Origin: Takakia lepidozioides
Lineage: Eukaryota > Plantae > Bryophyta
Length of the DNA: 64,000 bases
Direction of reading: 5' to 3'
Assembly (NCBI GenBank): GCA_030704615.1
Contig: JAKLZA010000030.1
Location: 1-64,000 of the forward strand
The notes under the pieces are model-generated. The model did not search any database, had not been told where the DNA came from, and was given only the letters and a program-made list of their open reading frames with translations. Of this stretch, positions 1 through 37,284 are shown in pieces. Position 1 is the first letter of the stretch, and each line of letters begins with the position of its first letter. The translations under genes were made by a program, and so were the position numbers.

Positions 1-1880
1 GCGACACACATGCGTAATGATCCGTCCTTCTTTTTCACAAACAAGATAGGCGCCCCCGCGGGTGATTTGGAATGTCGGATGAAGTGCTTTGACAAATTTT
101 CATCAATGTATTCGTGTAATGCAGCCAACTCCGTCTGGGATAAGTTATAGATTGGGCCGAATGGTGGTTGGGCTCCTTCTTGTGACTCAATTGCACAGTC
201 ATAAGGTCGATGTTCTGGCAATATGTCTGCATTTTTCTTCTCGAAGACATCTTTGAAATCTTGATATTGAGCGGGTAATGTTGAAGTACCTTTGTCTGTT
301 GTGGTCTTGATCGGAGTCGCATAAAGTGCAAATGCCGCCTCTTTTTTGGTAGCTCTCATGAAGGCTCTAGCTCAAGAAATAGGGGTTGAATACCTTTGGT
401 ACTTTTGCATTTTTGTCTTGCCGAAATTTTTCGTGATTGCCAATCGATGTCAGGATTATGAAGTACAAACCAGGGAAGTCCAAGGATCACAGGATTCGTT
501 GGAGACTGGATGACATCGAAAACAATCTGTGATGCTTGATTTTTAAGCTTCACTTCAAGGGGTCAAGTTTCATGGTCAACATTTCCTGATGCTAACGGTC
601 GTCCATCGATAACTTCAACAGGGCCGAGAATTTTTTTCTTACGAGCGTTAAATTGTGTTGCTTCGCAAAGTCTTTGTCAATAAGACACGTTGAAGCGCCC
701 GAGTCCAAAAGTGCTTCTACGGAGATATCTCGATTTTGCATCCTGATCTTTACTGGAATTGTGAAACAAGATACAGGGTCTGGAGGTAGAAAGAGACCTT
801 TTTTTGGTGAGGAATTTGGGGTGTCCAGCCGCATGGTCCCTACTGTGACTGGACATTTTGTTTTCCGACCTTCTCGTATCGAACAATTGAGTGGTGCCCC
901 GAGCTTTGAATCTTCTCTTGTTGGGGCAGTTTAATGTCATGTGATCATTTTCTCCGCAATAAAGGCATAATCCATTCGAGCGCCGTCTTTGTTTTTCTTG
1001 TGGCGTCAATGGCTTGAATCGGACAACATCAATCTGCATAGGATCATTACCGGATGTCTGATGGATCGTTGTATTTGGTACCGTAGTAGCAGCGGCATGG
1101 TGCGTCGTCAACCATCCAGATCGCTTCTCTTGACGTCTTTCGAACAAACGATTATCGCATGCAATGACTTGGGTGATGAATTCGCTCAGTGTACTCACGT
1201 TTGGCATTGTCAGCAACAAATCCTTAATCATCTTTTAGGCCACATCGAAACTGACTAATGATGCTCTTCTCATTCCAGTCAAGGTCGCACGCAAGTTGTC
1301 GAAATTCGGCAGCATAAACGGAAGCTGGACGTGCTCCTTGTCGAAGATTTTGCATCTTTGTCTCTCTGCAACTCTCTCTCTATCATCCTCTCCAAACGTT
1401 GCAGTGAACTCGGACATGAACGCTTCAAAATTGTATAGTAAATGCGAATTTTTCTCTAATAGCGGTGCAAACCAAGATAGGGCAGTGCCTGATAGAAGGT
1501 GCCCACGAATCCCACTTGAATACTTCATCAGAGTAGCGTTGTGGATATAGTAGTAGGAACAATCGTACTTGTTGAACAAAACCGCGAAATCTTGATCTCG
1601 TCCCATCAAATTTCTCGGGCATGCTGACCTTTGGTTCCCTTGTAATCTGTTGAAGATTTGGAGAAACCGTTGCAGTAGGATTTGTTGTAGTAGGGACTCG
1701 TAAGTTGAAGATCCATTGTTCGACTTCTTCAACTCTGAAATTTGTTGTTGCAAATTGTTGAGAGCATTGCCAAGGTCTTGAGATTGATCAGCTTAGTTGG
1801 GCAATAGAGGCACGAATTTCTTGCATCTGGAGTTGAAGACTCTGCAATGTGGCGACCATTTCCGCAAATGTGCCTTCCAT
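1..1880 (-). mobile_element. Ty3/gypsy (chromovirus/Tcn1-like) gag-protease-RT start, frameshifted, running off the left window edge
   Basis: ATG at 1880 (MEGTFAEMV..., coiled-coil N-terminus). Capsid PEKFDGTRSRFRGFVQQVRL...LSGTALSWF. Zinc knuckle CLYCGENDHMTLNC, protease ALLDSGAS, VILGLPW. RT N-terminal region below ~330. Confidence 0.9.
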
Positions 1881-1918
1881 CTTAACTAACTAAGGAACAA
1901 ACTTTAGTCTCGCCAAAC

Positions 1919-2140
1919 TGTCAAAGACGAGAACATGACTGAACACAAACAAGAGATAAGACTAGAGGTACAAGGCTAGACAAGAATCAAGGTCGGCGTG
2001 GCCGAATGCACGATGAGTAAATAGGAATCAAGACGATCTTTATAACAATGAACAAGATGTCATGGTTTTAGTCATGGTTATCTAGAATTACCTACTTCTA
2101 GTTAACTAGGACATTTTAGATATTTATATTTATATTTTGT
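1919..2140 (-). repeat. Partial 5' LTR of the gypsy element at 1-1880
   Basis: On the minus strand it ends ...TGACA and is followed by a PBS-like GTTTGGCGAGAC and a short leader before the gag ATG. The far end is truncated at ~2141. Confidence 0.6.
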
Positions 2141-2141
2141 G

Positions 2142-3401
2142 TGTTGGGAATTCATTTGGTCTCACATGCCAAGTGAGATGTCGAGCCTCACTTGAGATAT
2201 GGAGATAGGTTTTCCCCTTGTGAATGTTGAGGAGGCTCATCTTCTTGTAGTTGAGCCTCCATGAGCTTCTCTCACCTCCATAGCTCTAGGTATTGAGAGG
2301 GAGTGTGTTGAGGGCTTTGTAGGGTGGATTCATTTAGCAAAGGTGCCCTTGGCTTTACTTAGTTTATGTGATAGAGTGGATTTCACTTGGAAGGACTAGG
2401 GCTTGTTCTTCATGTGATTGCTTCATGCTTTGAGAGCTTTCATTGTCTTCTACTTCTCTCATTTCTCATTTCTTATCACTACAAGAAGATCACCTTATGC
2501 TTGTGAGTGCGGAGTGTAAGGATTAGTTTTGCACTTGTATTTTAAAGAGGTTGAGAGCTAGGAGAATTTAGCTCTTGTATCACAAGGCTTGCAAGGGGTT
2601 GCAAGGAAATGTGCTCAAGTATTGCACGCACCAAGGAGTTGGAGGCTTGAGAAGAAAGCTCTTGAGTCACAAGATTTTGCAAGGATTGTAAGGAGGAAGT
2701 CTTGTGTGTGTGGAAGCATGGATTCTAGGGTTTGAGAATCCTTTGTATGCATTATGGAGTCGATGGTGTGCGCCATGGCTTGTGGAGAGTGACTAAAGGC
2801 TTGTTAGTGCTCATTTCACTATCAAGCTAGGGTTAAGCAAGTTCAAAGTGTGGATGTTGTGGAAGAGAAGCCAAGGAGCTATATATGCTTGGGCTTGAAG
2901 ACAACAAGGGCAAGCACTTGGAGAGCACTAAGAAGCTCAAGAGGTTTTGAAAGGGAGCATGTGAAGAAATCTTCCAATCATGGTGGTGTGGAGCCAAGCT
3001 TAGGGTGCCATTGGAAGGGCTTGGAGAACATGTGGTGGGAAATCCTTGAAGGGAAATCATTATTCAATGTATGCATAGCTTTACCCTAACTATGTAATGT
3101 GACAAGAGGGGGAGGCAATACTTGGCTATTCATGCTCTTGGTAGTGCGAGCTTTGTGGTGGATAGTTGACCAAGCAAGTGGTGCATGTGTGGAGCATGCT
3201 CGCTTGAGTTTGTAAGTTCAAGTTTGAGAAGGGGAGCTCTTGAACTAGCAAGAGGTGAAGGCCTTTGAGATCCATTTGTGTGTGAAGTGGAGAGGTGTTG
3301 ATTCATGTTATGATGAAGGAGAGCAACACATAGGCCAAGAGGTCATGGAACATGCATTCAAATGACCACGGGGAGCACATGGATGATGGATTGGTGCAAG
3401 A
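2142..3401. mobile_element. Non-coding LTR-like fragment of an unidentified retroelement
   Basis: Starts TGTTGG, is purine-rich and internally repetitive, has no credible ORF, and is sandwiched between two other TEs. Confidence 0.35.
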
Positions 3402-3927
3402 TGTCGTGCGCATACGTATCGCTACACAACTACATCGCTGTCCAAACCACACCACACATATATGCACAATAAAGTAGTCTGCCACAATGATAAGAAAAGC
3501 TAAGAACACACTCTTAACACAAGAAACATGAAATCCATCTCATCATCACTCTTTCAGATAATAGTCGAGCCAGGGGCACCCCAAGCTATGGGGACTCCAC
3601 CCCACAACAACCTATCCTCCCATCATAAGTACACTCAGTTCTAAACGATGAAGGAGCTCGGTCGCGCAGGCTCAACTCGAGAGAGATGAGCTGCGCGATT
3701 GACGCTCTCGTGAAGATAAGACAGTTCAGTTGTCAAACTAAACTTGACACCTGATTAACACTTGACCTAAATCCAAGTGTTAAATACAAATAACTAGCTT
3801 TATTCTAGTTAGTTTCACACTGTGCTTATTTAACTTGACAGCTGTCGTGCGCATACGTATCGCTACACAACTACATCGCTGTCCAAACCACACCACACAT
3901 ATATGCACAATAAAGTAGTCTGCCACA
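3402..3927 (-). repeat. 3' LTR with A-B-A structure (85-bp identical direct repeats at 3402-3486 and 3843-3927)
   Basis: Exact duplication of TGTCGTGCGCATACG...GTCTGCCACA. PPT (minus strand CTAGGGGGGCG) lies next to 3927. GACAGCTGTC palindrome at the A/B junction. Confidence 0.85.
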
Positions 3928-4185
3928 ATCGCCCCCCTAGCTGGTGGATAGGTCCCTAAACTCCAGATAGCTACAAGATGTAATAGCCACAACCGTACTA
4001 AGTCCTCTATCACTGTCCCTATTGTACTCAAACTCTAAAGACCAAGAGGCCGGGTACAAGAGTAGCCCCATCGTTAGTCGCCGTCTTGCAATCTGTGAAC
4101 TTGAGCCAGGATCTCGTGTGTTCAAGGTCTCCTAGTAGCTTGGCCTTGCATTTCTTGTTAGCCTCCATAGTTGTATCCACTCCCA

Positions 4186-5577
4186 CTATCCAATGCATTG
4201 TGGACATAACCAATCCCCATCCGGAACCATCTCAAGAGGTGGAGTCAAGCATCCCATATGCCAACCTCTAGAGCATTGATCACACACCAGCATGGTGGCT
4301 GCCCCTTTAGCAGACCCACACAACATGCACCTCAAACTTGCAGATACCACTGCCAGGTTTGGGTCACATGGCGCACAATTACGCACATGGTCCTTCCAAG
4401 TTATGCCATCCCGACCCTCCAAGACCAAGACGCCTGAGGGCAAGACCTCTCGAACCCTCAAAATAACACGTCCTGCAGTCACATCCAAGGTCGTAGGAGC
4501 AGTCTGCTGCAGATAGACATAGTCACCAGGATTGAATCTCCGAACCCCAGGACGATAGCCCCCACCACGTATGGTAGCATACCTCAACGTATCACGGTGT
4601 TGTGCAATGGCAAGGTTCTCGAAAGCCATGGGCATGACTTTCTTGAATAACTCTGCACGCTGCTCACATGCACGTGCCCACATGTCCGGATCATCAAGGT
4701 TAAGAACTGTAGCAGCTTCCTGCGAATGGATGTAGGCAAATCCGGCTCTCGGCCAAAGAGAAGAAAGTATGGTGAGAAGGAGGCAAGTGATGCTTGCTTG
4801 CTGAACCTGTAGCCCATGGCTAACCAGGGTAACTGAAGGTCCCAATCTCCTAGGTGTCCCTTCTGCAAGCCATACTTGCGCAAACCCTCTTTACTGTCTG
4901 AACAACTCTCTCTGCCAAGCCATCGGCTCAGGATGATCCCGAGAAGTGGTGCGGTGGTCTATCAAGGCCTTGTCACACAAAGCCTGAAACTCCCCCAAGA
5001 ACTCTCTCCCTTGGTCCGTGAGTACCTCAGCTGGAACACCGAATCGGCTAAGCACACAATCCAAGAATGCATACGCAGCTCCCTCACTAGCCTTATCAGG
5101 CAATAAACCAACTCAATCCAATTGGAGAAGTGCTCCACCATCACCAACACGTACTTGTTGTGGCGCATGGTCAGTGGCAACGGCCCTGCGAAGTCAAGAC
5201 TCCACCTGTAGCCCAATCCCATGATCGGAAGAGGTGCAATTGTGGAGTAGGGGCGTTGAATGAAGCACGCACCCTGTCACACACCATGCACCTAGCCACA
5301 AATTGTTGCACCTCTGTGTGCATACCACGCCACCAATACTGCCCCTGCAGTAGACTATGAGTGCGTCGCACCCCAAAATGCCCAACTCCTCATGGGCATG
5401 CCGCACTAACCGTGCCCGCTGTGTTGGGTGAGGCACAATCCTCACTCGACCATCCTCCCACACTCGGAGCAGGTGTGTCCCCTCCCACTTGAACCTCTTG
5501 GCTCGTTGTAGGATCCGATCCCTCTCCTTGGCAGTCACAGTGGCTGCCGTGTCTCCAGTGCGAAGATAGTCCAACAC
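4186..5577 (-). CDS. Integrase (HHCC zinc finger + DDE core) with C-terminal PHD finger, frameshifted
   Basis: HAHEELGH...CMVC; WSLDFAGPLP; VLTDQGREF; C4HC3 CMLC..MLVCDQCSRGWHMGCLTPPL..VPDGDWLCPQC. Confidence 0.9.
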
Positions 5578-5779
5578 AGTGAATCCTCATGTATATCTTT
5601 GGCGCCACCTTGCTCATTGCTGGCCTCAGGGTCCTCAGACACTTGATCCACAGTCATCCCTGTTGCAGGTCCAACCTGGCCTTCCGCTGCCAAGATACAC
5701 AGAAATGCAGATGCATGCCATCCGGGCACCATCTCCTCGTCCGTCTCACCATGCCACCACCGAGCTCCAGTGTCATTGC

Positions 5780-7200
5780 TCGTGCATGGATTGTGACTCA
5801 ACCCATCTGCATTGCGATTGACAAACCCCGGTCGATGCACCACCTGAAAGTCATACTCTTGAAGGATGAGTGCCCACCGTGCAAGCTTCCCCGTAAGCTT
5901 GTCTGACTCCATCAACCACTTGAGTGGTTGGTGATCCGTGACAAGGGTGAAGAGATTGCCATATAGATAGCACCTGAAGTGTGCCACGGCCCACTGCAGC
6001 TAAGCATTCTCCCTCATATGAGCTATACTTAGACTCGCAGCATTGTTTGAGCGGCTAGCGTAAGCCACTACGAACTCTCTTCCTCATCATCCACCTGTGT
6101 GAGCACCGCTCCAAGCCCCAACATGCTCCAATCCGTATGCAGCTGAAAAGGCCCCCTGATAGGTCGTCTCAAGATGGGCGCCGAGGTCAACCTCGCCTTG
6201 AGCTCTTGAAAAGCTTGTTCTTGCTCATCTTCCCACTGCCACTCCTGGTCCACCTTGGTCAGCTTGGTTAGAGCCTTTGCAATGGCACTAAATCCCTTAA
6301 CAAACCGTCTATAATAGTTTGTTAACCCATGAAAGTTCGAACTCGGCTCACATCCGTGGGGTGGAACCTGTGCAATGGACTCTACCTTAGTCTGCTGTAC
6401 CCCAATCCTCCAGGATATATCATGTGACCCAATACTCAATCTGGTTGTGGAAAAACTTGCACTTTCCCGGAAACTTCAATCCGTGCGCCCTCAAGCGCTC
6501 AAATACCCCCTGAAGGTGTCTCTCATGCTCTTCCACCGCACTAAAGATGATGATGTCATCTATGTAGCACCGAGCAAACTCCACCCCTGCTAGAATCCTG
6601 TCCATGACTCTTTGAAACTCTGCGGAGCGTTCTTAAGCCCAAATGGTAAGAACCGCCACTGGTATAGGCAATCCTTCCCGTGCTCATTGATCCCCCAGAA
6701 TGCCGTCTTTTGCTTATCCGCCTCCTTGATCGGCAACTGGTGATATCCGGATCGTAAATCCAACGTGCTAAAGACCTTGGCATGCCAATGGCATCAAAGA
6801 TCTCCTCTGGTGTTGGCATGGCATACCTATCGGACTTGGTCTGACGATTTACAGGCCGGTAATCACCGCACATACGTCTCTCCGTCCAATTGCCAAAGAC
6901 ATCCTTCTTGGCTGGCATCACTGTGGCTGAAGCATACTCTCCCCCAGATAGCTCCACCAAACCAGCCTCCCAAAGGTCTTGAGTTCTCATCTGAATCAAG
7001 GACCTCTCCATGTCACTGTATCTATAGGGTCTCCGAAAATTGGCGTGTCAGTACCAATTCAATGCGAATCTCTGACCCTTCAGTGCTCCTAAGTCCTTCA
7101 AACTGAAGGCAAAGCAGTTCTGTAAGCCCTCAAAACCGCCGTATACGTCGTCTCTCTCCTCCGGTGACTATAGGTCCAACATCAGGCTCCCAGTTGTCCT
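5780..7200 (-). CDS. Reverse transcriptase and RNase H, frameshifted
   Basis: RRMCGDYRPVN, YAMPTPEEIF, ARCYIDDIIIF, LTNYYRRFVKGF, FQLHTDWSMLGLGAVL, TDHQPLKWL, LARWALILQEYDF. Confidence 0.93.
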
Positions 7201-7555: not shown

Positions 7556-8500
7556 ATAGCCAAGCTGATAATCCAGGTCAAGCAATTGAGATCCATTGCT
7601 TGCCCCAACACCTGACGATGTGATGCCTCAGAAAGAGATGGCACCCATGGTACCAGTGGTAAAACCCATTGCCCGCTCGTCGTCAGCATTGGGCTCCACT
7701 AATTGTTGCAACTGGCTATCCCACAGAGGCCAGGTCCACCATCCCGAAAAGCATGGGATCCTGGGAAGCTGAGCAGTGTAGGTAATGCTGCTCGTGGTTG
7801 ACCCACCTGTTGACCACTGCCACGGTCATCGTGTCTCACACGTTGAGACTGCCTCCTTGTGTCCAAATGCTATCCACTGTGAGGTGTGTTGGCCGCTGCA
7901 CCCCATCAAATGCACGCTTGAGCAGTGTGGGTGGCATCAGTTAGTCCACCATAACCGTGGACAATGAGCCCGTGATCCCACTGCAGCTGCATCCAGCAAC
8001 ACTGCTGACCCAAGCCACGACCGGACTTGATGCACACTGGCCATCACCCTAGCCCGAGAATCACCCATCAGTGGCACATTCTCCAAGATGTATGCTGGAG
8101 ATACAGCTTGATGAAGCTGCAAGTGGCGCAAAACCCGCACCATCTCCCAAAATAGACCCGTCCTCGAGTCTCGCAATCCATTGCCATGCCCGGCTGATGA
8201 ATGCCCTTGGCAGGGCCAACCTGCCACTACCAGATCAATGGAGCCAACCTGCTCCAAATCCTGCGCCCCCAGCAACGAAATGTCTGCTTACAAGGCTTGT
8301 GGTATCCACGAACTGCAGACACTGGCAACAAATCAGGGTACTGCTGTACCATCTGAGCAACATGGCGCAGTGAGACGTGTCGTGCAGTCTCATCCCTCTC
8401 CACATACAGGTAACGTCGAACTCGTACACCTGCCTGCAGTACTGCGGCCAATCCAGTGCTGATCCCGCCAACAAGTCCAGAAGGCATATGCCTTCATCCG
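7556..8500 (-). CDS. C5 cytosine DNA methyltransferase domain (DNMT3-like) inside pol
   Basis: Motif I LDL(F)GGI with a 1-nt slip, II YLYVERD, IV DLVVAGWPCQGHS, LFWEMVRVL, VI YILENV, VIII RAHCPRLWWTN, IX ERAMGF, X RQVLGQAMD. Confidence 0.9.
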
Positions 8501-8850: not shown

Positions 8851-9335
8851 TCACAGGGAGCTGTACACGACGACCCTCCCCTGACTGCCATCCAGGCCTA
8901 TAGAAGCTGACTCCTCCCAAAAATCCAGGGTGAAGCCCATGGGGTACAACACTGCCCCACCAACCAGGACATCGTACGAGACCGCGTCTGTCACAATGGC
9001 CTTGGCTCGCATCACTGAGCCATCTGTAGGGTGATCCGGCTGTAGTCCAATGGCCAACTCACCGTGTCATGCCCCGAGCCTGCTCTGATCCTCCCAAGAT
9101 GTCTGTATCTGGAAAGGAAAGGCTCCATATCCGCCTCCATGAGGCCCAAACGTGCAATAGCAGCTCTGCCCAACATCAGTGGCTGAGCTCCCGAGTCCAA
9201 CAAGACCCGCAGTGGCCGGTACTTCTTACCTGCCGGTCCACTCAAAATGAAAATGCCATCCTGGTTGTCTAACAAGACAACTCCAGGTGTCACCATGGCG
9301 CGCTCAAAGGCTGGCCTAGCTGGCAGCTCCGTCAA
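8851..9335 (-). CDS. Retroviral-type aspartic protease
   Basis: RVLLDSGAQPLMLG and YDVLVGGAVL. Confidence 0.85.
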
Positions 9336-9604
9336 CCTGACAGCTGCAGCTTGCCATGCGCAGCCGTGGCAATCTTGACCCTCAAATCCGAGGATCCCTC
9401 TGCCACTACACCTTCCTACTCCGCAGAAGATGAAGTGACCTCCCCACTCTCACAGAGTGTTGCTGCTAGTCTGAACACTGCAGCTGGTCTTATCCCCGGC
9501 GTCGCAATCATGGTTGCTGAGAACAGTGGGGCTTGACACAGAGGTGGCTGCCCCCAACAACACATCGGCTGCACTACCTTAGTAGCAAGTGTCAGTGATG
9601 CACG

Positions 9605-10441
9605 TGTAGGCATTTTTATGGTTCTGTGAGTCTGGGACTTAGACACTTCTATGGGTTCTGAGGGGTACCCTTAATTTTTTGAGATAGACCGTCAGCCATA
9701 CACAGCCCATCACAGTCAGTCACAAGCCCGACATAGTCATAGCCCGTCACAGCATACACAGCCAGTCACAGCCCAACACAACCCGATACAGCCGTCACAG
9801 TCTGACACAGTCGCACAGTCAGTCACAGCTGTCACAGTCATAGGGAAACGGTTATCATGACAGGGAACGACTGTGGGGAACAACATCTGCCGGGAACATG
9901 TAATTCACGGAGGACGGTTAGTGAAGGAAAACGGTTAGAACAGCGCGTAAGGAGATAAAGCGGGCAGCGGAGACGAGAGGGGGGACTTTTTTGGGACGGA
10001 GATCACTCTGGGGGAGGACTGAGATCGAAGGAAGGGAAGCTGGCGAGGAGGAGGAGATACTATAGGACAGAGTTAGTACGAGATGTAGGATTACTTAGAG
10101 GGATAGATTAGAGAAGTTAGGACATCAGCATGTATCCGATTATGATTAATCTGATTCTCATCCGATACAAACACCTTGTGTTGAGAGACTTGTGAAGCTG
10201 TGTATGAATGAAATCAGGGGGGCCCAAAGAAGCAATCTGACGCTTCAAAAGATACTTGGTCAGATAAACAGGGAATATAAACTGATAAGGAATGTAATTG
10301 GAAACCCAACAATGATTCACTAGCTGCAGGTCTGAATGATTGTTTCACGCGGGCTGAATGCTTAGAGATATCTCCAACTCTTCTATCTTGGAGTTTCCCC
10401 CTCGGATAGCGAAGGGATGGGTGAGTAAAAGCCGTGTGACA
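9605..10441 (+). repeat. 5' LTR containing a CACAGCC microrepeat array
   Basis: Ends GTAAAAGCCGTGTGACA. The 5' boundary is approximate. Confidence 0.85.
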
Positions 10442-10975
10442 TTTGGCGACCATACTGGGGAACTGAGTCATGAACAACCAGATGTGACAGGCATCTGGTG
10501 GGATCATGGTGGTTGGAGGATTAAAGAATTTGATGTGAATCAAATTCCCTGTGGAACGAAGGAAGAAAGATTGTCCAAACAATTCTTTCAAAGGTTCTTG
10601 GAATTGCCAGACGGTTGTAAAGAAAATATTCTTAAGCGAGTGCATGATGCTGATCCGGAATGGGGTCTGGAGAAAGGAGTGATAAAGATTTATCAGGTAG
10701 CCTGTAGAGGAAGAGCACGGTGGTTACCAACATTGGTTTATGTGATAGCCTTGCTATCTATTAAGCGGGTAGAGTTTGAAAGCTGGGAGGAAAGGAAAGT
10801 GAATGTTTACACTCATATGCATGAGGAGCTTGTATTGGTAAAGAATTGGATTCCAAAGGATATCTTGTGGATCAAACTTACACCAAGAACAGCTTTTCAG
10901 ACTTGTTTACCATATGGTTATAGAATTTTGGTTGTTGCCACACTAAAAGAAATGAAAGATATGGAACATGAGTGA
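10358..10975 (+). CDS. Extra ORF upstream of gag, function unknown, with an F-box-like motif
   Basis: Conserved with 39143-39775 with many third-position differences. Contains RFLELPDGCKENILKRV. Confidence 0.6.
   Translation: MLRDISNSSILEFPPRIAKGWVSKSRVTFGDHTGELSHEQPDVTGIWWDHGGWRIKEFDVNQIPCGTKEERLSKQFFQRFLELPDGCKENILKRVHDADPEWGLEKGVIKIYQVACRGRARWLPTLVYVIALLSIKRVEFESWEERKVNVYTHMHEELVLVKNWIPKDILWIKLTPRTAFQTCLPYGYRILVVATLKEMKDMEHE
10444..10461 (+). other. Primer binding site, probably tRNA-Arg
   Basis: TGGCGACCATACTGGGGA, 2 nt after the LTR end and identical at 39253-39270. Resembles the complement of the plant tRNA-Arg(UCG) 3' end. Confidence 0.7.
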
Positions 10976-11789
10976 TGAAAGAGAAGCTAGACTCCAAAGA
11001 TATTCAGCAAAAGAGAAAGTTATCTGAAAGCTCATTATCCATACCTGTGGGAGAGAGGAATAGACATTGGGGAATCATTTGGACCTCTCACACCATTGAG
11101 ATCAGGGAGTACATCACCTATACCAGAGGAGCTAGAGTTGGATACCACACCTTCTTTTTCTTTGCAAGAAAGATTAAGGGACTTGGCAGAGGAAGAAGAT
11201 CAACCACGAGGTGAAAGATCTGAGGGTACATCCCTGGATAAAAGATTTGGCAGAAATCTTTGATAAGAGTTGGCATGGAACACCAAGAGCAGGAACTCCA
11301 GTTTCGGGAGCAAAAGATGAGGATACAGAACCAGCGGAGAGTTCAAACTCTCCAACATTATTACAAAATAGTTACATGAGTGAAGAAGAAGAAAACCAAG
11401 GGCAGAACTTGGAAGATGAAAACAGGAAAAAGAAATTTGGAAGATGAGGAATATAAAGAAGTAGACCCAGCAGCTGAGGTTGAGGTTGAGACTACAACCA
11501 GGACATCCCAACCCGTTGGACCTGGATCAAGTGGAGCACTTGGATCACAGGCCAACGAAGTGTCGGCTCAGAGGGATCAGGCGAAAGACCTGGATCTGGC
11601 TCTGGGGGACAGGGAGTGTGGAAAGTAGTGCAACTGAGGCTGGGAATACTGTGAATATAGAAAGGCCAGGAGCAGGAAGGGCTCAGGGGCCAGTAATTGG
11701 TGGAAGAACCACCACAAATACTACAGGTCCACAGGGACCAGCATCAGCCAAAGGGCCAACAACTGTTAGGGGGCGGGTGTAGGGTTGCA

Positions 11790-14592
11790 GATGGCGTTAC
11801 AACCAATACGGGGCTAAACCACCTTTTCCAATATATTCAGGGAAAGGGGATCCTGATGTACACATTAGCCAATTTGAGCACATGTGTATAGTGAACAATG
11901 AGAATGGCAATGATGCCAAGATGAGACTGTTTCCGTGTTCACTTATAAAGAAAGCCAGTGAATGGTATGCAAGATTCCCTGATAATCATTTCCTAACCTG
12001 GAATGGCTTGAGTACAGCGTTCCGAAATAGGTTCAGGACCAGTAAAACTGAGGATGAAGTGTATGGGAGTTTACAACAGCTGAAGCAGAAGAAGCATGAA
12101 ACTGTTGAAGAGTATATGGAGAAAATGGAGTTGATGATGAAAAAGTTGGCTACTATACCAGCACCAGGATTGCAGAAGGCTTGGTTTGTGAATGGACTAA
12201 GGCCAGAGTTGCAAAAGAAAGTAGACATGTTACCCCACAATACAGTGGAGGAGGCATTTGAAACAGCAAACAGAATTGAGCAGTTGGGAATGCTCAAGAA
12301 GGAGAAAAGAGATGAAGAGGACTCTGAGGATGAGTCAGAAGAAGAAGAGGAGATGGAGCATAAAAAGAAGAGTAAAAAGAAGGAAAAGATGAAGAGGGAA
12401 AATTATGAGAAGAGATTAGAAGAAATCTTGAAAAAGTATGCCACAGAGGCTTGCAACACATTGGAGGAAGGGTGTTTGGTGTGCAAAATGCCAGAATGAA
12501 GGCCACACCACTACTGAATGCCACATGAAGGAGAAACATTGCACTATCTGTAAAATAGATAACCATTCTACTGAGAATTGTTACTACAACAGAAGAACAG
12601 CAGTAAGAGAGCCTAGGCAGGTAAGGGTGCATCAAGTGCAACCCCAGCCAAGAAGAAACAATGATCAAGACCACTATGGTAGGACAGGTGGTTATAACAA
12701 TGGCATGGAAAGGAGAGGTAATCCAAGAGGGAATTACCAGGGACATCCCAGGGGTGGCTATCAGGGTAATCCAAGAGGGAATTACCAGCCAGGGAATCAG
12801 GATTACAGAAATAATCCCAGAACAGACCAAGGGCGAGGACCCAATGGAGAAGAACTGTGTTACTATTGTAATCAGGCAGGACATCGTAAGGCGGCTTGTC
12901 CATTCTGGATCAGACACCAAAATGAGATGAGAGCTCCTGGGAATGAGGGGCCAGTGGCAGCCCACATGGTTAGGCCATGTATTGTACCGGAAGTGAGTAC
13001 AATGATAGTAACAAGAAGCAGAGCCAAATTAGTACCTCCAGTGAAAGATGAAGTTGTTGATAATGAAGATGGCAGTGATGTGCCTGAAGATGATGAGGCT
13101 TGGAGAGATGAGAAAGAACTGCACAAGGAAGTGGCGGATACCATACAGGAAATGCAGAAGAGTACTGATATTCCCATGGTAGACTCCTCAGACTCTGAAA
13201 GGAGAAGAAGAAGTCAGTGAGGAAGAAGGAAAGAGGGAAGCTGCAGAAGTGCAGGGTAAGGAAGGGACATTGGCTGAAGTGATATGCCAGTCCAAAGTGG
13301 AAATTACCATTGGACAGCTATTAGCTGTGGCACCTTATTGTAGACACAGGCTGTATCAAGCAATCAACAGGATTGCCCATTTGACAGAGAACATAGACCT
13401 GAACAGCAAGGTGACAAGTTATAATGTGAGGCCAGAAGGGCAAGAAACAGTCATGGATTTTGATGATTCTATGCCAGTTATCCAGTTGAGAATTGGAAGC
13501 ACAGAGCTGGCAGATGTACTGATAGATGGAGGCTCTGGTGTGAATATCATGACAGACCAATTGAGGCAGAAGCTAGGTCTAAACAACATGAAACCAGCCC
13601 CATTTACAGTAACCATGGCAGACCAAAGGAGTGTACAGCCATTGGGATTGATCAGAGGAGTTAAAATCCAGATTCAAGAGATGATCTTTAAGATCACAGT
13701 AACTGTGTTGAAGATGAATGAAGTCCTGGAAGCTTATTCCTTATTGTTGGGAAGACCATGGCTGAAACAGGCCAAGGTGTCTCATGATTGGAATTCACAG
13801 TTACTGACTGTGTAGGATGGGTTGAACAAGATACAAATCACCAATAAGAAATCTGAAAGACTATCTGCTACAAGAAGACCAAGAGGGGTCAGAGAGTATG
13901 ATTGGAAAGAAGGACTGGATGAGGAACAGGAAGTTACTTTGTTCGCTGCACACCCAGAGTGGGAACAGGTTGCAGAGATGCAATTAGAAGGCCTGAGTTG
14001 TTTAAAAAATATCTACTGTGGGTGCAGTGACAACAACCCCAATTGAGGAGGAAATAAATAGTTACCCACCACATTTTTATGAGGAAAGGGAAGGAGAGAT
14101 TGATATCCTAGAGGAACCAGCCACTGTAAGTCTACAGGATGAAATAGTAACTGGTTGGACAATCACAGCTGATGAGCAGGTGAGGGAAGTGAATGTGGGA
14201 ACTGAGAAGGAACCATCTAGAGCCAAAATTGAAGCAAAGAGTCTGTTCATTAAATACATAGATGTATTTGCTTGGAGCTATGAGGATCTGAAGGGGATAC
14301 CACCTGAGATCTGTCAACATAAGATTGAACTGGAACCAGGATCAATACCAGTTAAACAGGCGAGATACAGGATGAATCCCAACTATGCAGAGAAGGTTGG
14401 AGAAGAGATCAAAAAGTTGGCTGAAGCTAAATTTATATACCCGATAGAGTACACAACTTGGTTGTCACCCATTGTGATAGTCCCCAAGAAAAATGGCAAA
14501 CTAAGAGTTTGTGTGAACTACAAGAAGCTGAATGCTTGTACGAGGAAGGATCTTTTCCTCTACCATTCACAGAAGCAGTATTGGACACTGTG
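11790..14592 (+). CDS. gag (three CCHC knuckles)-protease-RT N-terminus, frameshifted
   Basis: CAKCQNEGHTTTEC, CTICKIDNHSTENC and CYYCNQAGHRKAAC. Protease at 13249-13815, RT from ~14200. Confidence 0.88.
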
Positions 14593-15479
14593 TGTCGCGC
14601 GGCTTTTACTCACCCATCCCTTCGCTATCCGAGGCGGAAAACTCCAAGATAGAAGAGTTGGAAATCTCTAAGTACTCAGCCCGCTCAGAACAATCAGTCA
14701 TGACCTACAGCTAGTGTATCATGGGGGTGTTTCCTATTTGTTTCCCTTTCCACATTCATGTTAGCTACCTTACCATTGATAATTAAGTATCAGTTTGCTT
14801 CATCAATCTATCGGATTCCTTCAACTCATCCATTCATTCCACAGCTTCACTCAGATCTCTCTACACAGTGTGATTGTATCGTATAAGTATCAGATTATGA
14901 TTTATCAGGTATCAGGCCGAAGCCATTGTGTCTCTAATCTCCTCTACAATATCACTACAGCTCTGCATATAACAAGCATCTACTAATCATCTCTCCTCCT
15001 TCTCCATGCTTGCTTCCGTTCTTCTCTCCACCCGATCCCCTCTCCTCCATGACCAAGAAGTCCTCCCCCTCGAGTGCTTCCAAGAATAATCATCATCCCC
15101 CCTTAGTCCTTGCCTCTCCCTTTATCTTCCTACCCGTGGCTCTAACCGTTTCCCTCACTAACCGTCGTCCGGGAACTATCATGTTCCATTTGCAGGTGTT
15201 GTTCCCCACAGTCGTTCCCTGTCCTGCTCTCTGTTCCTATGGTCGTGACAGCTGTGTCAAGATGTGACCGCGACTGTGACTGTGTTGTGTGGGCTGTGTC
15301 GGCTGTGACGACTGTGACAGGCTGTGTCGGACTGTGACGGGCTATGTTGGGCTGTGTAACCCCCATCTACAGTGCGCTGCTGTCACCCCTAAGGCTCTTG
15401 TTGATCTCAGTCTGTGCAAAAATTAAGGGTACTCCTCAGATCCCATAAAAATGTCTAAGTCCCTGGCAGTCCTCTAACA
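14593..15479 (-). repeat. 3' LTR of an antisense copy of the same Tat/Ogre-like family
   Basis: Minus strand reads TGTTAGAG...CGCGACA. PPT TTTTGAGAGGGGAAGGGG at 15483-15500. Confidence 0.9.
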
Positions 15480-15517
15480 TTACCCCTTCCCCTCTCAAAA
15501 AGCCGTGTCCTCACGGT

Positions 15518-18500
15518 TTACTGATTGCGATTAGCAAACCTTTGTGAGTGAGCACCTTTCTGACTTTGAGAGTTTCGTGGCGGACTGTGTGTACGAGCCC
15601 GAGGTCTGTCACTGGTTGACGGAGATGTTTGAACACTACCCGGATAAGTGAGGCCCTCTGGAGGCTGATATCGAGGTAACCTTTCAGGCATAGGAGACCC
15701 CCGTCGCTTCTTTTCTGCCATTTGAATTGCATAGTCTTCTCCCATGTCAAAAGAATCCGCCGTTTGTATCAGAATCCTCATCGCCTCTCAGGTGTTAATT
15801 GTCGAACTTTTTGTGGAATCCTCTGGGGCATACAATGTTGTCCTACCACGTCAGGAAGTTTATATTTTAAAACTTGATGTAAACGCTGAACGGCAAAATT
15901 GGTGAAGACACTGAGCTCCTTGTCTGTCCAGGTGAGTGGGGTACCAATGACTTGTGATTTGTTCAAGTATTTCCATGCCACATGTGCCTTATAGAAAATA
16001 TCATCAATGCCGAATTTCTGTGTTGACAAATTGTTCCAGGCCGACTGAAACCATAAACGAATTTGAGAATCCTTTTGCATCATGACTTTTGCCTCATATA
16101 GGTACATATGAGGTGGCACTGAAGGTAAGACCCAATGATCCCCACTGGAATAACTCAGAAAGCGCGATTGCATCTTTTGCTGCTCAATGTGATAACGTAC
16201 CAGAAAGCAAGCAGCGTAGTATAACCCACATCCCATGACAATACTCGCTACCTCTTTGGTCTTGGTATAAATGAATCCATGTACAACTTGGAAGGCAATT
16301 AATTCCCTCAACATTGTACCTGCCTCATGCCAGTATTGTGCAAAGTGATGATCTTCAATTGGTCGATTGTTCGGAAGAACGTTAGTCCTAGTTGCCACTG
16401 GCAGCCAAATGCGCATGATTTGGTAGTAATGTGCAAATGATTGCGGAGGACTAAATTCTTTCCAAGCCAAATCCAACATGATGGGAATTTGGTTGAAGGG
16501 CAGAATCATAGCCCTATTGTACTCCCTTGCAGCTGGAGTTTTAGGTGGGTTAAAAGCAGCATTGCCCCATACCTCAGACTGTGGTGGCTGTGGTGTAGTT
16601 GTAGTAACAACAGGGTCAGCTATTGGCACAGTGACTTGTTGTGTTGTTGGTGGCACTGGCTCTTGTACCATTGGCATCTCATGCACCTCCTGTGAAGAAG
16701 ACTGAAAAGCTAAAGTTCTCGCTTAAAGAAGCCATTAGCTGTTCATCAGGTACACAGACTCTCTTGTCGATATTTGAAGTGAGGTCCTCCACTTGAGTCT
16801 GCAGGCCGTCTATATCCTCCTGTAACTCCGCTATCCTACTATAGACATTGTCTATAGTAGTTGTGGCAATGTTCTGCACTTGCAGCCTGAGCTCATTCAT
16901 CTCGCTTTGGGTGAGCTTTCGTGGTGCTTTGCCTTCCACTGGCCCTTGTGCTAACCAGACCTGCATAAGGTGGTTATCCACCAAGTTGCTTGTGGTTCCT
17001 CTGAGAGTGTGCTCCTCTCTTTGTTTGTACACAACTAACTGCTGTTGTAAAGCCTCCATGCGCTTCGCATGAGGTTCAACCAAATTTGCATAGGCAGCAG
17101 GCAGATTATTGGCTTCCTTCCAAGCTTTGTTAGCCACAGAGAGTTCATTTCTATTGGCCATGATCGTTTGTTGCAACTCCAGGATGTGCCTCTCTTGGTC
17201 AGCTTCAACCTGCCTGTATTGCTTGAAAGTATCCTCATTGCGACAGATTGTATTCTTCATATCGACAATGAGTTTCATTTGCTCAACATTCTCTGCCTCT
17301 GCCTTCGTACATCTTTCCGCTTGACTGTTTATTTCTATTGTAGATTGGTCAAGCATAGTTGTGAGTGTAGCACATTGGATGGCCATTTTGTCATGCACTG
17401 TCTGCAACTCCGTATGTTGTGCATTTACTTGTTGCAACTTGCTTTCATGCTTCACCTGCATTTGGTATAGCTGTTGCTTATGTGCTTCGTGCAATTGGTC
17501 TTGTGCGAGGCCTGCCTCAATCAATTGTTCTTTGGCCAATTGCAAAGCGCCGCTTCCGTATTCTCCAAGTCTTGTTGCATCTTGATAGTGACCTCTTCAT
17601 CGACCTTGTTTGCACACTTAGTGGCTAGTCGAGCCTCAAACTCCTTCCTGAGTTCCCTCTCAAGGCTTGTCAATTGGGTAATTGGAACATGGGATTTGAC
17701 ATAAGTCCCCAACAAATTAAGTGTCATGCCTATGGAACTCATCAGCATTGCCTGTTGAGGGTCATCATTGTGAGGTTGCTGCTGTTCCTCCTGATCCTCA
17801 ACCGTGTGATGTCTCACGAACCACTCAGGCCATTGTCCCACCGGATTTTCTTCCTGAACCACTTCATCTATCACCGGTGCTGCAGTGTCATGACCTTCTA
17901 CCTGTGGTACCTCCGACACAGGTGTGTGTATTATATGCACCTCAGGATTTCCCTTGGGCAACTGTTGCACCTCTGGAATCTCTGTCTCCTTGACCAGACC
18001 AGAATATTCATAGAGAAGGTCCCCCTTCTCAATTTCTGCCACTATCTGTTCTGTAGTTGGAATATCTAACCTTTTTTTTCCAAATCAATTATTTTTGGTA
18101 GAGCTGCATGGACAACTTGTGACCTTGTGACAAGCCGATCAGCTGGCTGTGATGGTTGTGATACTGAAGTAACTTCCTCCTCTCTCTCTGAAGGTCCTGC
18201 TTCCAGTAATAGCAGTTCTGTGCTGCTGTGCCCCTTCCTGCACATGAGCTTGGGAAACATTATCATGCGGAATCCGTGAAGCCAGTGGATCCGCGACTAC
18301 AGTTTTCCCCGTCTCTGCCTCTTAGTCTCGGGTTGCCCTACTAGTCCACCCTCACTGTGTGAAGAGCCTTGCTCTTCCATTGCAGTGGTTTCTGGCTCAA
18401 ACACTCCCATCTCCTTTCTTTCTTGCGCATCAAGTATGCCAGAATCAAGAATTATTTGAGCAATGATTGGGCCAGACACTATGATAGGAGACTTTGCGGT

Positions 18501-19270
18501 AGTACCTTGTAATCTTTTCATCTCCTCTACCAGTGCGTTGTACATTATGTCCGCCCATTCTACCTCTTCTCCCTCAAGGCTTTGAGTATTTCCTCTGTGA
18601 AGGATCTGCTCAAATACTGTTGGTTTTGTTTCATGGCAAACAGAACGTTCAATACCTGGCCTACCTCCTTTAGCCCTGGGTACACGGCCTTGGTACAAGC
18701 GTAACCCTGAGTTTTAAAGAAACTCCCTTCTTGGAATAAGTCCTCTATTTGCAGTCTTGCCCTGTGCTCCTCCACATGCACTTGACCTGCTGGCAATTGA
18801 AACAATTGCTGTAGGTATAGGGGAGTAATTACTAATTCAACTCCCTTCACCGTTGTTGCTCATGTCCTTGGCTCAAAGTTCTGTAAGAATTGTAACATGT
18901 ACTGTCTATGGTGCAATGTCCAATCTTTGCTTTGCAATCCTTGCAATCTCAGTTCCTTCAGTATCTGTATCGCCTGTGGTGTAGCAATTGTTTGTTTCTG
19001 CAGAATTGTGGTGCTCTTCACCCTGATTTCCTCCATTCCTCTCACTCTCTTCATTCTAGACCCACAGAAATGTTTTGGCTGTAACAATTGAAGAATTGCC
19101 TGCAGTGCACAAAACATAAACGTATGGTTGCCACAAAAAGCTATGGGTAATTTCTTGTAAGCCTGTGGGGCTTGCAAGCATCGCTCAAGAGAAAAGATCC
19201 GCTCTGTTGTTTCGTCCCTATGCCACTGCGTAAGTAGTATTGCAAGCGTATAGTCTGTTAGTTCCTCCAT
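15518..19270 (-). CDS. Long 3' accessory ORF (frameshifted): Transposase_32/Athila-ORF2-like N-terminus, acidic linker, coiled coil, globular C-terminus
   Basis: A chain of same-strand ORFs. YMLQFLQNF..VKGVELVITPLYLQQLFQLP and VEWADIMYNAL..GPIIAQII. Heptad-rich region at 16700-17700. Lies directly upstream of the PPT and LTR. Confidence 0.65.
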
Positions 19271-19764
19271 AGCTTCAAAGCTATTGCATTGATTGTTTGT
19301 CCCTTCGCGACACCCGTTACTTAGAACGACGCCGACTCTTGCCCTAATTTCCCTCCATTTTCTTGATCATTTCTCTGGCTCTATTGGCTGTAACCAATGT
19401 GACTGGATTTTAGATTTAATTTTCTTTAGTGGACTTTCCCTGCTGGATTGTCCACTAGGACCCACATGTGACAAGAATTTCTTTTTTCTGTACTTGCCGT
19501 TTGTTCCGTTCCCTTTTTCCGTATTCATTAATGGGCCCGCCCTTCATCCGAAATGACGCGCTAAGTAGGTATTTTGACGGCCATTCTTGTCTTTTTTCTT
19601 GATGACACCTGTTCTTGCACTTCCTTCTCAGCTGTGTTCGCGCCTGACTTCCACGTGTCTATTTTTAAACTGGTTTCGGTCCTTTCTTCCGTCGGCCCTT
19701 TTCCTGAAGTTATTGTGCGTCCATCTGTCACTGTCACTGATTCTATGGATCGTGTAACCCTAGT

Positions 19765-19985
19765 AGGCTGTGTTGAGTTGTGACAGGCTGTGTCATACTG
19801 TGGTACATTGTGATAGGCTGTGATGCACTGTGGTAAGTTGTGATAGGCTGTGACACGCTGTGGTAGGCTGTGTTGTGCCGTGCTGGGCTGTGATAGACTG
19901 TGTTTCACGTCTGTGATGGGCTTGAGGGGCTGTGATAGACTGTGTCGTCGTGATGGGCTGTGATAGGCTGTGTCACGCTTGTTCT
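19765..19985 (-). repeat. CACAGCC(TAT) microrepeat array similar to the one in the LTRs
   Basis: Repeated TGTGATAGGCTG units on the plus strand. Confidence 0.8.
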
Positions 19986-20139
19986 GCCCACCCTGGTCAT
20001 ATATGCTCGGCCTAGCGACAAGTGCTCCATACTCCGTTGGTAACACTGGCGCAGCCCGTGACTGCTCTTGCGTTTAACCATGCAAATCATGTTGCAATGG
20101 TTTGTCATGGATACCACTCTATTGTAGTGTGAAAAAAGA

Positions 20140-21215
20140 AGGGGCGTGAATCCCCTTCTGGTTAATCCTAAAATCTGTACTCCTCCTACTCGTCCCTGTT
20201 GAAGTATCAGGGCAAAGGAAAGGAGCGTTCTCTTTTCTGGAGGAAGATGGGATATAACGGTAGTAGACAACTATTTCAAGGAGATCACAAGCGACACCAA
20301 TGACAGCACTTCCATTTATTATGTGAGAGCTCTGTGTGGAGCAAAAGGCACATTTGTCCTGAAAGAAGAATCATTCAATGGTGCTTCCTTGGTGCAAAGA
20401 ATAGGAACCTCCTTTGCCTATGCAGGGAGGGGAGAACATACCGTTTCAACGGACGGGAGATATGACTTTGCTCGAGTGTGGCCTTGGACAGCTACACCAT
20501 TCAACAGGTTCCCAATTCACTTTCTCTATAGTCGAACCGACAGTCCATCATAGCATCATGAACTATTTGAGGATCAACCATTCATTTGAGAAATCACTTA
20601 AAGACTACATGGTTGATTGCAAGGATGATGCCAGTGCAATGGGTAGGGCATGGGAGAAACTTTTCACAGTTCATGTGGCCAAGCTGTTTGACGGGCAAAA
20701 TTGTTGGCCAATATGTGCTGTTTCAAGGATGCAACCCTGCCTCCAAAATTCGCAAGGGACAAGCCAATGATTACCCAGTGAAAGGAGTGTGGAGGGAGTC
20801 ATATAGGATCCACACCATAAGTAAATTTCTTGATGCTGAAGAGAAATCTCGTCCGCCATGCCTCATTTTTGACGACAGATCTGGAGCTGATGTTCTTTTT
20901 GTTGTGAGACTTGGGAATTTGAAGATTCCTGTCTTCTGTCAACTGAAGCTGCGATCTGAGGTGCAGTGGGCTAGAGCAGTGGCAACTACAGATCCGGAAC
21001 AGATGTACAAGAAAAGTTCCGAGTACAAAACGAGGGTGCTTGCCGCATGCAAAGATGGTTGCATCAGCTTGGTAGTTGCCTATCCTGCAAAGAAGCCAGC
21101 TAAACTCCAATCTGAATGCCAAGATAATCGTTTAATTGGCTATATTGGACAGGTAGAAGCGGAGGATTTGTTTGACCGCGTGTTATGTGATTTCTTACGT
21201 TCTATCAAGGAGTGA
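20140..21215 (+). pseudogene. Crinkler (CRN)-related C-terminal fragment with a REase-fold domain
   Basis: EPTV..., DASAMGRAWE, PCLIFDDRSGADVLFVV, PVFCQLKL, AVATTDPEQMY, SLVVAYP, EDLF. This is an E..D..QxK catalytic pattern. Confidence 0.55.
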
Positions 21216-21959
21216 TGGGGACAAATTTTGTGATGGCTCATGGAGTATTGAGAAGGTGAGATTCATTGGGATACTGGCTCTATTTTTTTGTGTTTGGTGA
21301 CATTTCTATATTCTCTTGTGCTGTCACACCTTTCCACAAGTATACTACTAAGTTAGACTGCTTCTGTATTCAACCATGGACCAACTTCAAGAACCTGTGA
21401 AAAAGGGACACAAATTAATGACAAGTATGTTTTCATGAACCAATCAATGAGTTCATCAGCTTTGTGTTACACTGCATGATACGATGGTGTGACAAGTTTG
21501 CAGGATATTCCAAAATTGGCCGTACTGGAGATACTGGTACCTCCTCCTCCTCGTCTGAGCTGTTGAGATCGACCACAGGTACCGATGGCGTCATAGCTGC
21601 AACAGGTGGCCTCACCGGAGCTGGTACATCCTCGTCCGAGCTGACAAGCTCGATCAGTGGCCTCGTATACTTCATACGAGGCATACTGGCAACCCTGCGA
21701 TATAAGAAGAAATAACATTAAGAAATTACCCAAAATACACACATCCAACTTTTGAATTGATCAAATATAGCACCTAATTGAACCCGATTCATTAAATCAA
21801 CATGAATTTTGATCTAGAAGGACCCACAAAAAATATAGACATATCAATGGATTTGCAACAAAAACACACTCAATATGCACACAAAAAAATTACCCCAATC
21901 GGACAATATTTGACCTAGATATGACCCCTTAAAGTTCGCTCACCTTACTGAAAAGGGTT

Positions 21960-23104
21960 TCCAACTCACTATTTGCTCATAACTTTTGTTTTACAAGGAA
22001 TTACAACAAGCGCCGCATACCATTGAATTCCCCACAAAAAAGCGCACAAGCTGCATACCCTGAATGTAAGAAATGACAAGATTAGGCCCCTAAAATGCAC
22101 TTTGAAAGTTGCTGACTTTTTAGACCAGGTTGACGTTTATGCTCATATCTTCCGTTCTAGGACGAATTAGAAGATGGGTAAGATACCAATGGATTCAACA
22201 CAAAAAGAGCCCAAGATGCATACCTTGAACGCACAAATCGACCAAGATTTGGTGTAGATATGCCACTTTGAACGTCGCAGATCCTACAAAAATGGCAGGT
22301 TCACATTTTTAGTCATAAGTTTCGATTTACAACGAACTAGAACGAGCACAATATACCATTAGATGCGTAATGAAAAACACACACAAATACATGCCTCGAA
22401 CTCGCAAATCGACACGATTTCGCTGCGATATGCCACTTTGAAAGTCGCTAATCCTACAAAAGAAGTCCGCCTCACAATGTTGCTTGTAAGTAGAGTTTTA
22501 CAAAGCATTAGGGTGAGCGCCACATACCATTGGATTCCCCTAGAAAAACTACACAAGATAGACACCTAAACTTTCCAAATTGACGAAGATTGCTTAAGAT
22601 ATCTCACTTTGAAAGTTGCTGCCTTAATTGGACCAAATTCAAAAAAGTCAAAGTCAACCCAAAGTCAACTCCTTAATATCTCCCAAGTGGCGAGGGATTA
22701 GGGAAATGTTTTTACATATTCGGAATCCTTATACCTTTAAATGGGGGGGTTAGGTCCATTCAAAACCACCAACAACCTCCAAATTTAGCCGCAATAGGCA
22801 TTTTAGGGTTTTCCCTTCAAACGCCTATATTTGCCAACTTTTTGACCTTTTTGCCAAAAAATTTCCACCATTGTCCTAATAATACCCACTACTACCACCT
22901 AGGTGTTTCAAATTCCAAAAAAGCTATATATAGGCCAAAGGTCAAAAAAAATAATGCCAAAAGTCAAATGTTCATATCTCACGAATGACGATACATTAGG
23001 AAATGTTTTTACATATTCGGAACCACAATATGCACAAATGGGGGGGTAGGTCACCTCAAAACACGAAAAAGAAAAAAAGGTCACTTTTTGCGGGAATGGC
23101 CATG
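21960..23104. mobile_element. Probable DNA-transposon end with degenerate subterminal repeats
   Basis: Four ~170-bp units (~21975, 22141, 22312, 22482) share ATACCA(T/A)T..ATT and CACTTTGAA. Two further units share AAATGTTTTTACATATTCGGAA..ATGGGGGGG.TAGGTC (~22700, ~23000). Confidence 0.55.
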
Positions 23105-23128
23105 TAATCCTAAACCTAAATCCTAAAC

Positions 23129-37283: not shown

Positions 37284-37284
37284 T

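Follow-up and report, generated by a model that had tools for sequence, protein, structure and literature searches.

The integrase of a Ty3/Gypsy retrotransposon from Takakia lepidozioides ends in a complete C4HC3 PHD finger, and this finger is lineage-wide in the Gypsy-DNMT3 family to which the element belongs. The window, i.e. the whole 64,000-nt stretch of DNA that was analysed (positions 1 to 64,000 of contig JAKLZA010000030.1), contains two copies of the element, both of which are broken as assembled. Judged by its sequence, the element is of the Gypsy-DNMT3 (KnitGypsy-Dnmt3) kind, which has already been described.

Anatomy of the element and its PHD finger

Copy 1 is encoded on the minus strand in the domain order PR-DNMT3-RT-RH-INT-PHD (Table 1), and is a Ty3/Gypsy element by its PR-RT-RH-INT order and by the HHCC and DDE motifs of its integrase. 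The C-terminal finger matches PF00628 with an E-value of 2.1e-11 (bit score 44, cut-off 24), retains all the C4HC3 ligands (spacing C-x2-C-x11-C-x2-C-x4-H-x2-C-x14-C-x2-C by translation) together with the core Trp, and is directly followed by the stop codon at 4188-4186. The first-pass annotation, which had described a full C4HC3 finger closing the integrase and its conservation in a diverged second copy at ~63805-63960, is borne out on both points. The PHD regions of the two copies are 88% identical at the nucleotide level over 162 nt, and 13 of the 47 codons differ. Since nine of these changes are synonymous and four are non-synonymous, the finger appears to have been kept under selection.

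The integrase frame is limited to 4713-4189 within the 234-codon ORF at 4186-4890. In copy 1, the linker before the finger is about 10 codons shorter than in relatives, and other copies from public sequencing runs carry ~30 nt at this gap. Copy 2 has a frame break directly before the finger, and only the last ~450 nt of its body are inside the window, the DNMT region being located beyond it. The gap in copy 1 removes the His of a CAPCH/xPCH motif, which lies ~25 residues before the finger (window 4330-4400). A PCH-type motif is found at most 45 aa upstream of the finger in 90 of 98 relatives, residues P320, C321 and H322 are each conserved at ≥90%, and the motif may form an extra metal site. 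In the AlphaFold model of the relative P0001, the PHD finger has a pLDDT of 88-92, and the integrase resembles those of PFV and Ty3 in structure comparison.

Table 1. Coordinates of the two element copies and of neighbouring features in the window.
Feature	Position	Strand	Evidence or remark
3′ split direct repeat, copy 1 (B1 3929-3843, GC, A 3840-3489, B2 3488-3402)	3402-3929	minus	
Polypurine-tract-like sequence before the terminal repeats	3930-3942	minus	sequence; same in copy 2
PHD finger, C4HC3, C-terminus of integrase, copy 1	4189-4329	minus	Pfam PF00628, PDB matches
Integrase C-terminal region (helix, beta-strand domain, CAPC linker)	4330-4713	minus	~10 linker codons missing
Integrase HHCC zinc finger and DDE core	4714-5580	minus	translation; tblastn with P0007, P0024, P0270; frame breaks
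Reverse transcriptase (YIDD) and RNase H	5787-7120	minus	PF17917 E 1.9e-14; tblastn; frame breaks
DNMT3-like C5 cytosine methyltransferase	7565-8480	minus	PF00145 E 2.3e-13; family profile
Aspartic protease (LLDSGA) and upstream stretch matching Marchantia	9093-9580	minus	PF13650 E 0.013 (weak); tblastn with P0273/P0278
gag-PR-RT of nested LTR element	about 10440-14590	plus	within 9600-24151
3′ LTR with polypurine tract, nested family	14593-15479	minus	
Coiled-coil ORFs, unannotated	15778-19366		behind the 14593-15479 LTR
Solo LTR	23314-24151		flanked on both sides by ACGGC
Further copy of the nested LTR family	from 38301 (38301-41250)		
3′ split direct repeat, copy 2	62873-63545	minus	same layout and junction palindrome
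PHD finger, copy 2	63807-63947	minus	PF00628 E 1e-12; out of frame with preceding linker

Copy 1 is cut just above ~9600 by a nested plus-strand LTR element and is truncated regardless of whether the many single-base frame breaks in its body are assembly errors. Some of them could be, because most of the listed indels relative to contigs from public runs are losses of one base in the window. The DNMT, RT, INT and PHD parts are all represented in contigs of four public runs, which cover 30/30 bins of the element in three DNA runs and 26/30 bins in the fourth, a run whose type was guessed to be RNA but may be DNA and which is hence not taken as a sign of expression. Two runs of one sample gave 54,400 and 58,758 records over the element, numbers that reflect depth rather than copy number. 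The run coverage is consistent with a large element family.

The family profile of the methyltransferase matches copy 1 over 8299-7640 with an E-value of 1e-40. Motifs IV (GWPCQ) and VI (ENV) are present, motif VIII is altered, and the domain is broken by frame breaks and an in-frame stop. The motif order is unrearranged (I-IV-VI-VIII), and the catalytic Cys is conserved at ≥90% in an alignment of 55 sequences. The best PDB match of the profile is DNMT3A (E-value 6e-22), and DNMT3A/B are far ahead of DRM. Among the 150 proteins selected by DNMT (see below), motif IV reads GWECQ in 63 and GWPCQ, as in the window copy, in 41.

Downstream of the body, the 3′ part of a DIRS-like split repeat (B1-A-B2) is present in both copies. 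B1 and B2 of copy 1 are identical over 87 nt, and the element end reads ...GACA. The B1/A junction forms a palindrome, GACAGCTGTC, at 3846-3837 in copy 1 and 63362-63353 in copy 2; it resembles two integrase ends (...CA and TG...) joined via GC. Neither the 5′ end of copy 1 nor a 5′ copy of repeat A was found within the window, that of copy 2 is situated outside it, and the 5′ repeat structure was not seen in contigs of public runs aligned on the terminal repeats. An element that combines a DDE integrase with DIRS-like repeats may replicate through an unusual intermediate.

The nested LTR family (9600-24151, 38301-41250) is not that of copy 1 and has 10-bp tandem repeats in its LTR. On its other side, copy 1 adjoins a further retroelement (677-3400), gag-like with DUF4939/PF03732 at 1235-1792, and appears to have inserted in the upstream region of this neighbour. 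The segments 43396-44115, 52376-52978, 59220-59846 and 27252-27770 contain subtilase pieces (fn3_6, weak Peptidase_S8), a DUF679/DMP gene and a pogo-like HTH_psq/Tc5 transposase fragment. A 1.27-kb duplication with 94% identity spans 24793-26067 and 36091-37344, and long ORFs of up to 492 codons (20571-21215, 30553-31869 and 34865-36343) had no Pfam match.

The finger across the Gypsy-DNMT3 family

We collected relatives by three routes. The integrase tail and PHD as query retrieved 123 proteins, and of the 120 listed, 107 have PF00628, which such a query would be expected to select; named relatives included those from Marchantia (76%), Calypogeia, Sphagnum, Klebsormidium nitens (52%), Volvox, Pleodorina and Haematococcus. 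The DNMT region as a single sequence yielded four proteins, all with a PHD finger, which were too few, and this search was superseded by a profile search that gave 492 representatives at E ≤ 1e-30. The best 150 were scored; the profile was built mostly from PHD-bearing elements, and five of the 150 overlapped with the first set. Among these best 150 of 492, 72 reach the integrase core and 56 extend at least 60 aa past the C-terminal domain to the PHD site, where 52 carry the finger, two have remnants and two are without it. An RT-RH query listed 120 of 2,555 matches, 15 of them already in the earlier sets. Among the matches listed, 53 reach the PHD site by the same 60-aa limit, with the finger in 47, Cys-rich remnants in five and nothing in one. 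The finger is located directly after the integrase C-terminal domain in these relatives. None of the 120 and 120 listed relatives has the chromodomain PF00385 among its precomputed domains, nor did Pfam give a Chromo match in the window ORF.

The PHD finger is thus lineage-wide in this Gypsy-DNMT3 family and is not essential everywhere, as the two DNMT-bearing relatives devoid of it demonstrate. A chance origin of the finger is rejected by its E-value (2e-11) together with its family-wide conservation, and a one-off host gene fusion by its frequency in both the DNMT-selected and the RT-selected relatives.

Reader and writer reside in one element, as the first-pass annotation had it: both belong to one Pol, and the intact relative P0312 has PR-DNMT-RT-RH-INT-PHD in one ORF of 1783 aa. 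The DNMT precedes the RT in the window, K. nitens P0118, Marchantia P0273 and P0278, and P0312; in an alternative form, mostly chlorophyte where named, it is located between RH and INT. Of 23 new RT-selected proteins with ≥450 aa before the RT, 16 have the DNMT; five of the other seven fall outside the clade described below, and two end soon after RH. Long-tailed PHD proteins that were not chosen by DNMT and span RH to PHD (n = 32) comprise 25 with and seven without the DNMT, and four of the latter (P0053, P0064, P0071 and P0085) have a short RH-INT gap and upstream regions only partly seen. Another 42 short-tailed PHD proteins, which mostly start at the RT, stand outside this count. The co-occurrence of PHD and DNMT, which had been proposed as a check, is therefore strong (52/56 and 47/53) but not strict, since four proteins have a PHD without DNMT in the expected slot and two have a DNMT without PHD. 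Co-occurrence within one clade is shared descent and not independent support for a coupling of the two domains.

A FastTree RT-RH tree of 173 tips (167 proteins with one full RT and RH, the window sequence with X at the breaks, and five outgroups) placed all the DNMT-bearing tips in one clade of 160 tips with a support of 0.96. The window copy groups with Marchantia and Calypogeia sequences in a 6-tip clade (support 0.98), which by itself points to a bryophyte as the likely host. The RH-DNMT-INT group is supported by only 0.39, and because its monophyly is weakly supported, we claim no order of events for the two DNMT positions.

Some relatives have long C-terminal tails. Several of these (P0119, P0142, P0160 and others) show a weak Tudor-like match after the PHD, PF21743 below cut-off, and 16 of 67 tails of ≥250 aa contain a DP[WF]xG...SPW-like pattern resembling amino-methyltransferases. 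Neighbours of the tails in the ESM Atlas fall into bacterial and phage clusters without names, and in one of these 26% of the members have PF05175. The tails are possibly a second writer. Pieces of the element family appear in the Marchantia polymorpha annotation as hypothetical genes of the host (P0002, P0005, P0273 and P0278).

KnitGypsy-Dnmt3 is described as a DNMT3 in a Gypsy Pol with DIRS-like repeats (de Mendoza et al. 2018, PMC5890265), and the window element shares with it the unrearranged, intronless DNMT3-like domain in a Gypsy Pol and, at the 3′ end, the DIRS-like repeats of the Fig. 4c legend. The order DNMT-RT-RH-INT recurs in K. nitens P0118, and INT-PHD forms the C-terminus of K. 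nitens P0027 and P0346. The RT of the window element groups with DNMT-bearing streptophyte elements, a comparison made with K. nitens proteins and not with the published reference sequence. In contrast to KnitGypsy-Dnmt3, the window copy groups with the liverworts Marchantia and Calypogeia rather than with Klebsormidium, and its lineage is also found in chlorophytes, there with the DNMT between RH and INT, whereas Gypsy-DNMT3 has been described from streptophytes. The PHD has no mention in the text and supplementary files of PMC5890265 that were searched, and Fig. 4c may draw it; a search of the published literature, in text and not figures, found none that ties a PHD to Gypsy-DNMT3, and the names of this element kind occurred in only two of the papers searched. 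Methylase-bearing transposons are said to be absent from land plants such as tracheophytes (PMC6338049) and are mentioned in streptophytes (PMC12344493).

Chromovirus Gypsy integrases carry a C-terminal chromodomain (Gao et al. 2008, as described in citing papers). The proposal that the PHD takes the place of this chromodomain stands as to position, and the two have in common a histone-reader fold at the integrase C-terminus, which would act similarly if the tethering suggested below holds. Unlike chromoviruses, which are recognized by the chromodomain at this site, the window element has a PHD there, which is predicted to bind unmodified H3 rather than methylated K9. EpiLTRs also unite a chromatin reader with a cytosine methyltransferase in one LTR retrotransposon; in contrast to the window element, they carry a chromodomain, DAM and a DNMT4-sister DNMT, and are stated to be distinct from Gypsy-DNMT3 (bioRxiv 10.64898/2026.05.21.726589). 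Gypsy-7a_cRei of Chlamydomonas likewise has a PHD in its Gypsy Gag-Pol, inserts in intergenic DNA at 2.6 times chance and has been proposed to be targeted (PMC9940879); likened here by description, it differs from the window element in that its legend puts the PHD before INT and mentions no DNMT. Retrotransposon PHDs have been called widespread (PMC6673714; PMC8557442; bioRxiv 2021.11.30.470311), and the Ginger1 transposase ends in a PHD (PMC2836005). The literature already contains Gypsy Pol proteins with PHDs as well as LTR elements that combine a reader with a writer. The table row of the Phygy lineage, compared by description only, gives a 4-bp NCGN duplication and names no additional Pol domain, and the literature search found no paper linking Selgy with a PHD.

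Predicted histone binding and the role of the finger

Residue frequencies were determined in 99 complete fingers, i.e. those of 98 relatives and copy 1. The Asp after Cys3 is present in 88%, and the Pro, Gly and Trp of the P-x-G-x-W pocket in 85, 76 and 97%, respectively, and both window copies have all of them. Two residues before the His ligand, which we take to be the position of the Trp in K4me3 cages, copy 1 and 90% of the fingers have Gly, and Trp is absent from the six residues listed at this position in the 99 fingers. Met is located three residues before Cys3 in 84%, presumably aligned to the cage Met of ING2. Copy 1 reads A-S-L-R before Cys1 and is devoid of the K4me0-binding Asp, with Ala at the place of KDM5B D308; Asp is found before Cys1 in 11% (-4) and 36% (-3) of the fingers. 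The best PDB matches of the copy 1 finger include CHD4, PHF12, KDM5A/KDM5B PHD1, ATXR5, DPF3, PHF21A, BAZ2A/B and UHRF1 and are dominated by unmodified-H3 readers, among them KDM5B PHD1, ATXR5, PHF21A and UHRF1, and no ADD entry was among the 60 shown of 83 matches.

In KDM5B, D328 binds H3 R2, P347, G349 and W351 hold A1, and D308, whose loss weakens binding from 6.4 to 41.7 µM, binds K4, while K4me3 readers use a cage Trp, e.g. ING2 W238 and BPTF W32, and the ING2 cage includes Met (PMC4225485). ATXR5 reads unmodified K4 (PMC7718874), and the UHRF1 finger binds H3 through R2 irrespective of K4 (PMC3214078). The window finger has the R2 Asp and A1 pocket of the unmodified-H3 readers (KDM5B/ATXR5/UHRF1) without the acidic residue before Cys1, and it is without the cage Trp of the H3K4me3 readers (ING2/BPTF). 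Because the A1/R2 pocket is kept and the cage Trp is absent, the finger likely recognises the unmodified H3 tip, shows no preference for K4me3 and distinguishes K4 states only modestly. Its affinity and K4 discrimination may be low, since Ala replaces the D308 of KDM5B and Asp stands at that place in only 11% of the family. Reading of the K4 state, which the first-pass annotation had brought up, is thus probably weak. The conservation of Asp and Trp is no proof of histone binding because both residues also stabilise the PHD fold (PMC3214078).

We suggest, with moderate confidence, that the PHD tethers the integrase via the unmodified H3 tip and biases insertion away from active promoters. The conserved Asp and the P-x-G-x-W pocket would bind H3 A1/R2 with K4me3 left uncaged, and the integration complex would be tethered to nucleosomes by the unmodified N-terminal H3 tip, so that insertions would be biased away from H3K4me3 promoters and towards silent or intergenic chromatin. 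The DNMT would be a separate product of protease cleavage, and once released it would methylate the element cDNA or the fresh insertion. PHD and DNMT would then be co-inherited parts of one strategy and not a physically coupled reader-writer like the DNMT3A ADD. The intergenic preference of the PHD-bearing Gypsy-7a_cRei provides a precedent for such an insertion bias; insertion sites visible in the window are two only. Self-methylation of the element would mimic host silencing marks, since in moss the host DNMT3b methylates CG and CHH sites de novo in heterochromatin (PMC6453930). In yeast, the DNMT domain of K. nitens had no activity, a result called inconclusive by the authors (PMC5890265). 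CpG depletion was considered as a mark of self-methylation and is silent on it, because the observed/expected ratio of the element (0.51) does not stand out from that of the window (0.53); the ratio of the neighbouring DNMT-less Gypsy stretch is 0.15.

Less probably, the PHD could be a non-histone structural or protein-binding module, which serves intasome or particle assembly or contacts a host factor, perhaps with the PCH motif. The prevalence of this motif upstream of the finger (90/98) suggests a larger unit, and copy 1 has neither the K4me0 Asp nor the K4me3 cage; however, no residue of the A1/R2 pocket has been lost, and fingers of the UHRF1 type bind H3 by R2 whatever the state of K4, which makes this reading unlikely, if worth keeping in mind.

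In animal DNMT3A, the ADD adjoins the catalytic domain and regulates it, and is composed of a GATA-like finger and a C4C4 PHD. The window element resembles DNMT3A in its DNMT3-type catalytic domain and in a finger predicted to favour unmethylated H3. It is improbable that the likeness extends to a coupling in which the PHD and the DNMT remain together in the integration complex, such that recognition of H3K4me0 by the finger guides or switches on de novo methylation where the element inserts. The co-occurrence of the two domains is strong, and in the mostly chlorophyte form the DNMT adjoins the integrase and could stay fused to INT-PHD. In the window element, by contrast, the finger is a plain C4HC3 PHD on the integrase, ~3.2 kb or ~1,000 codons away from the DNMT with RT-RH between them; no ADD is among the PDB matches shown, four PHD proteins have no DNMT in the RH-INT slot, and two DNMT proteins have no PHD. 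The earlier suggestion of an ADD-like guidance of the DNMT hence finds no support, as the domains lie far apart and each is sometimes found alone.

A broader and similarly doubtful scenario is that an old green-lineage Gypsy clade assembled a DNMT3A-like logic from separate parts. The integrase PHD would sense unmethylated H3 and the DNMT3 would ride in the same integration complex, having moved beside the integrase in the chlorophyte branch; insertions would land in H3K4-unmethylated chromatin and be methylated on arrival, and integration may also come from a split-repeat intermediate opened by the DDE integrase at the internal ...CA-GC-TG... palindrome.

It is very unlikely that the PHD recognises H3K4me2/3 and directs new copies into open, gene-proximal chromatin, where the DNMT would limit the harm. 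In favour of this reading, the Met before Cys3 resembles the ING2 cage Met in a presumed alignment. Against it, Gly occupies the place of the cage Trp in most fingers, Trp is not among the residues listed there, and the best PDB matches are mostly unmodified-H3 readers.

Significance for Gypsy elements

The single locus is a broken copy and has value only as a pointer to the family. What it adds to the described Gypsy-DNMT3 is the lineage-wide PHD, its predicted unmodified-H3 class, the bryophyte and chlorophyte range, the two DNMT positions and the junction palindrome. With named relatives in liverworts, Sphagnum, Closterium and chlorophytes, Gypsy-DNMT3 is no longer confined to a single alga, and this range bears on why retrotransposons keep methyltransferases. 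The tethering idea is testable in Marchantia, in which relatives are annotated as genes (P0005, P0273 and P0278). If tethering via the unmodified H3 tip holds, the finger would represent a second, PHD-based route to chromatin-guided Gypsy integration, parallel to that of chromoviruses.
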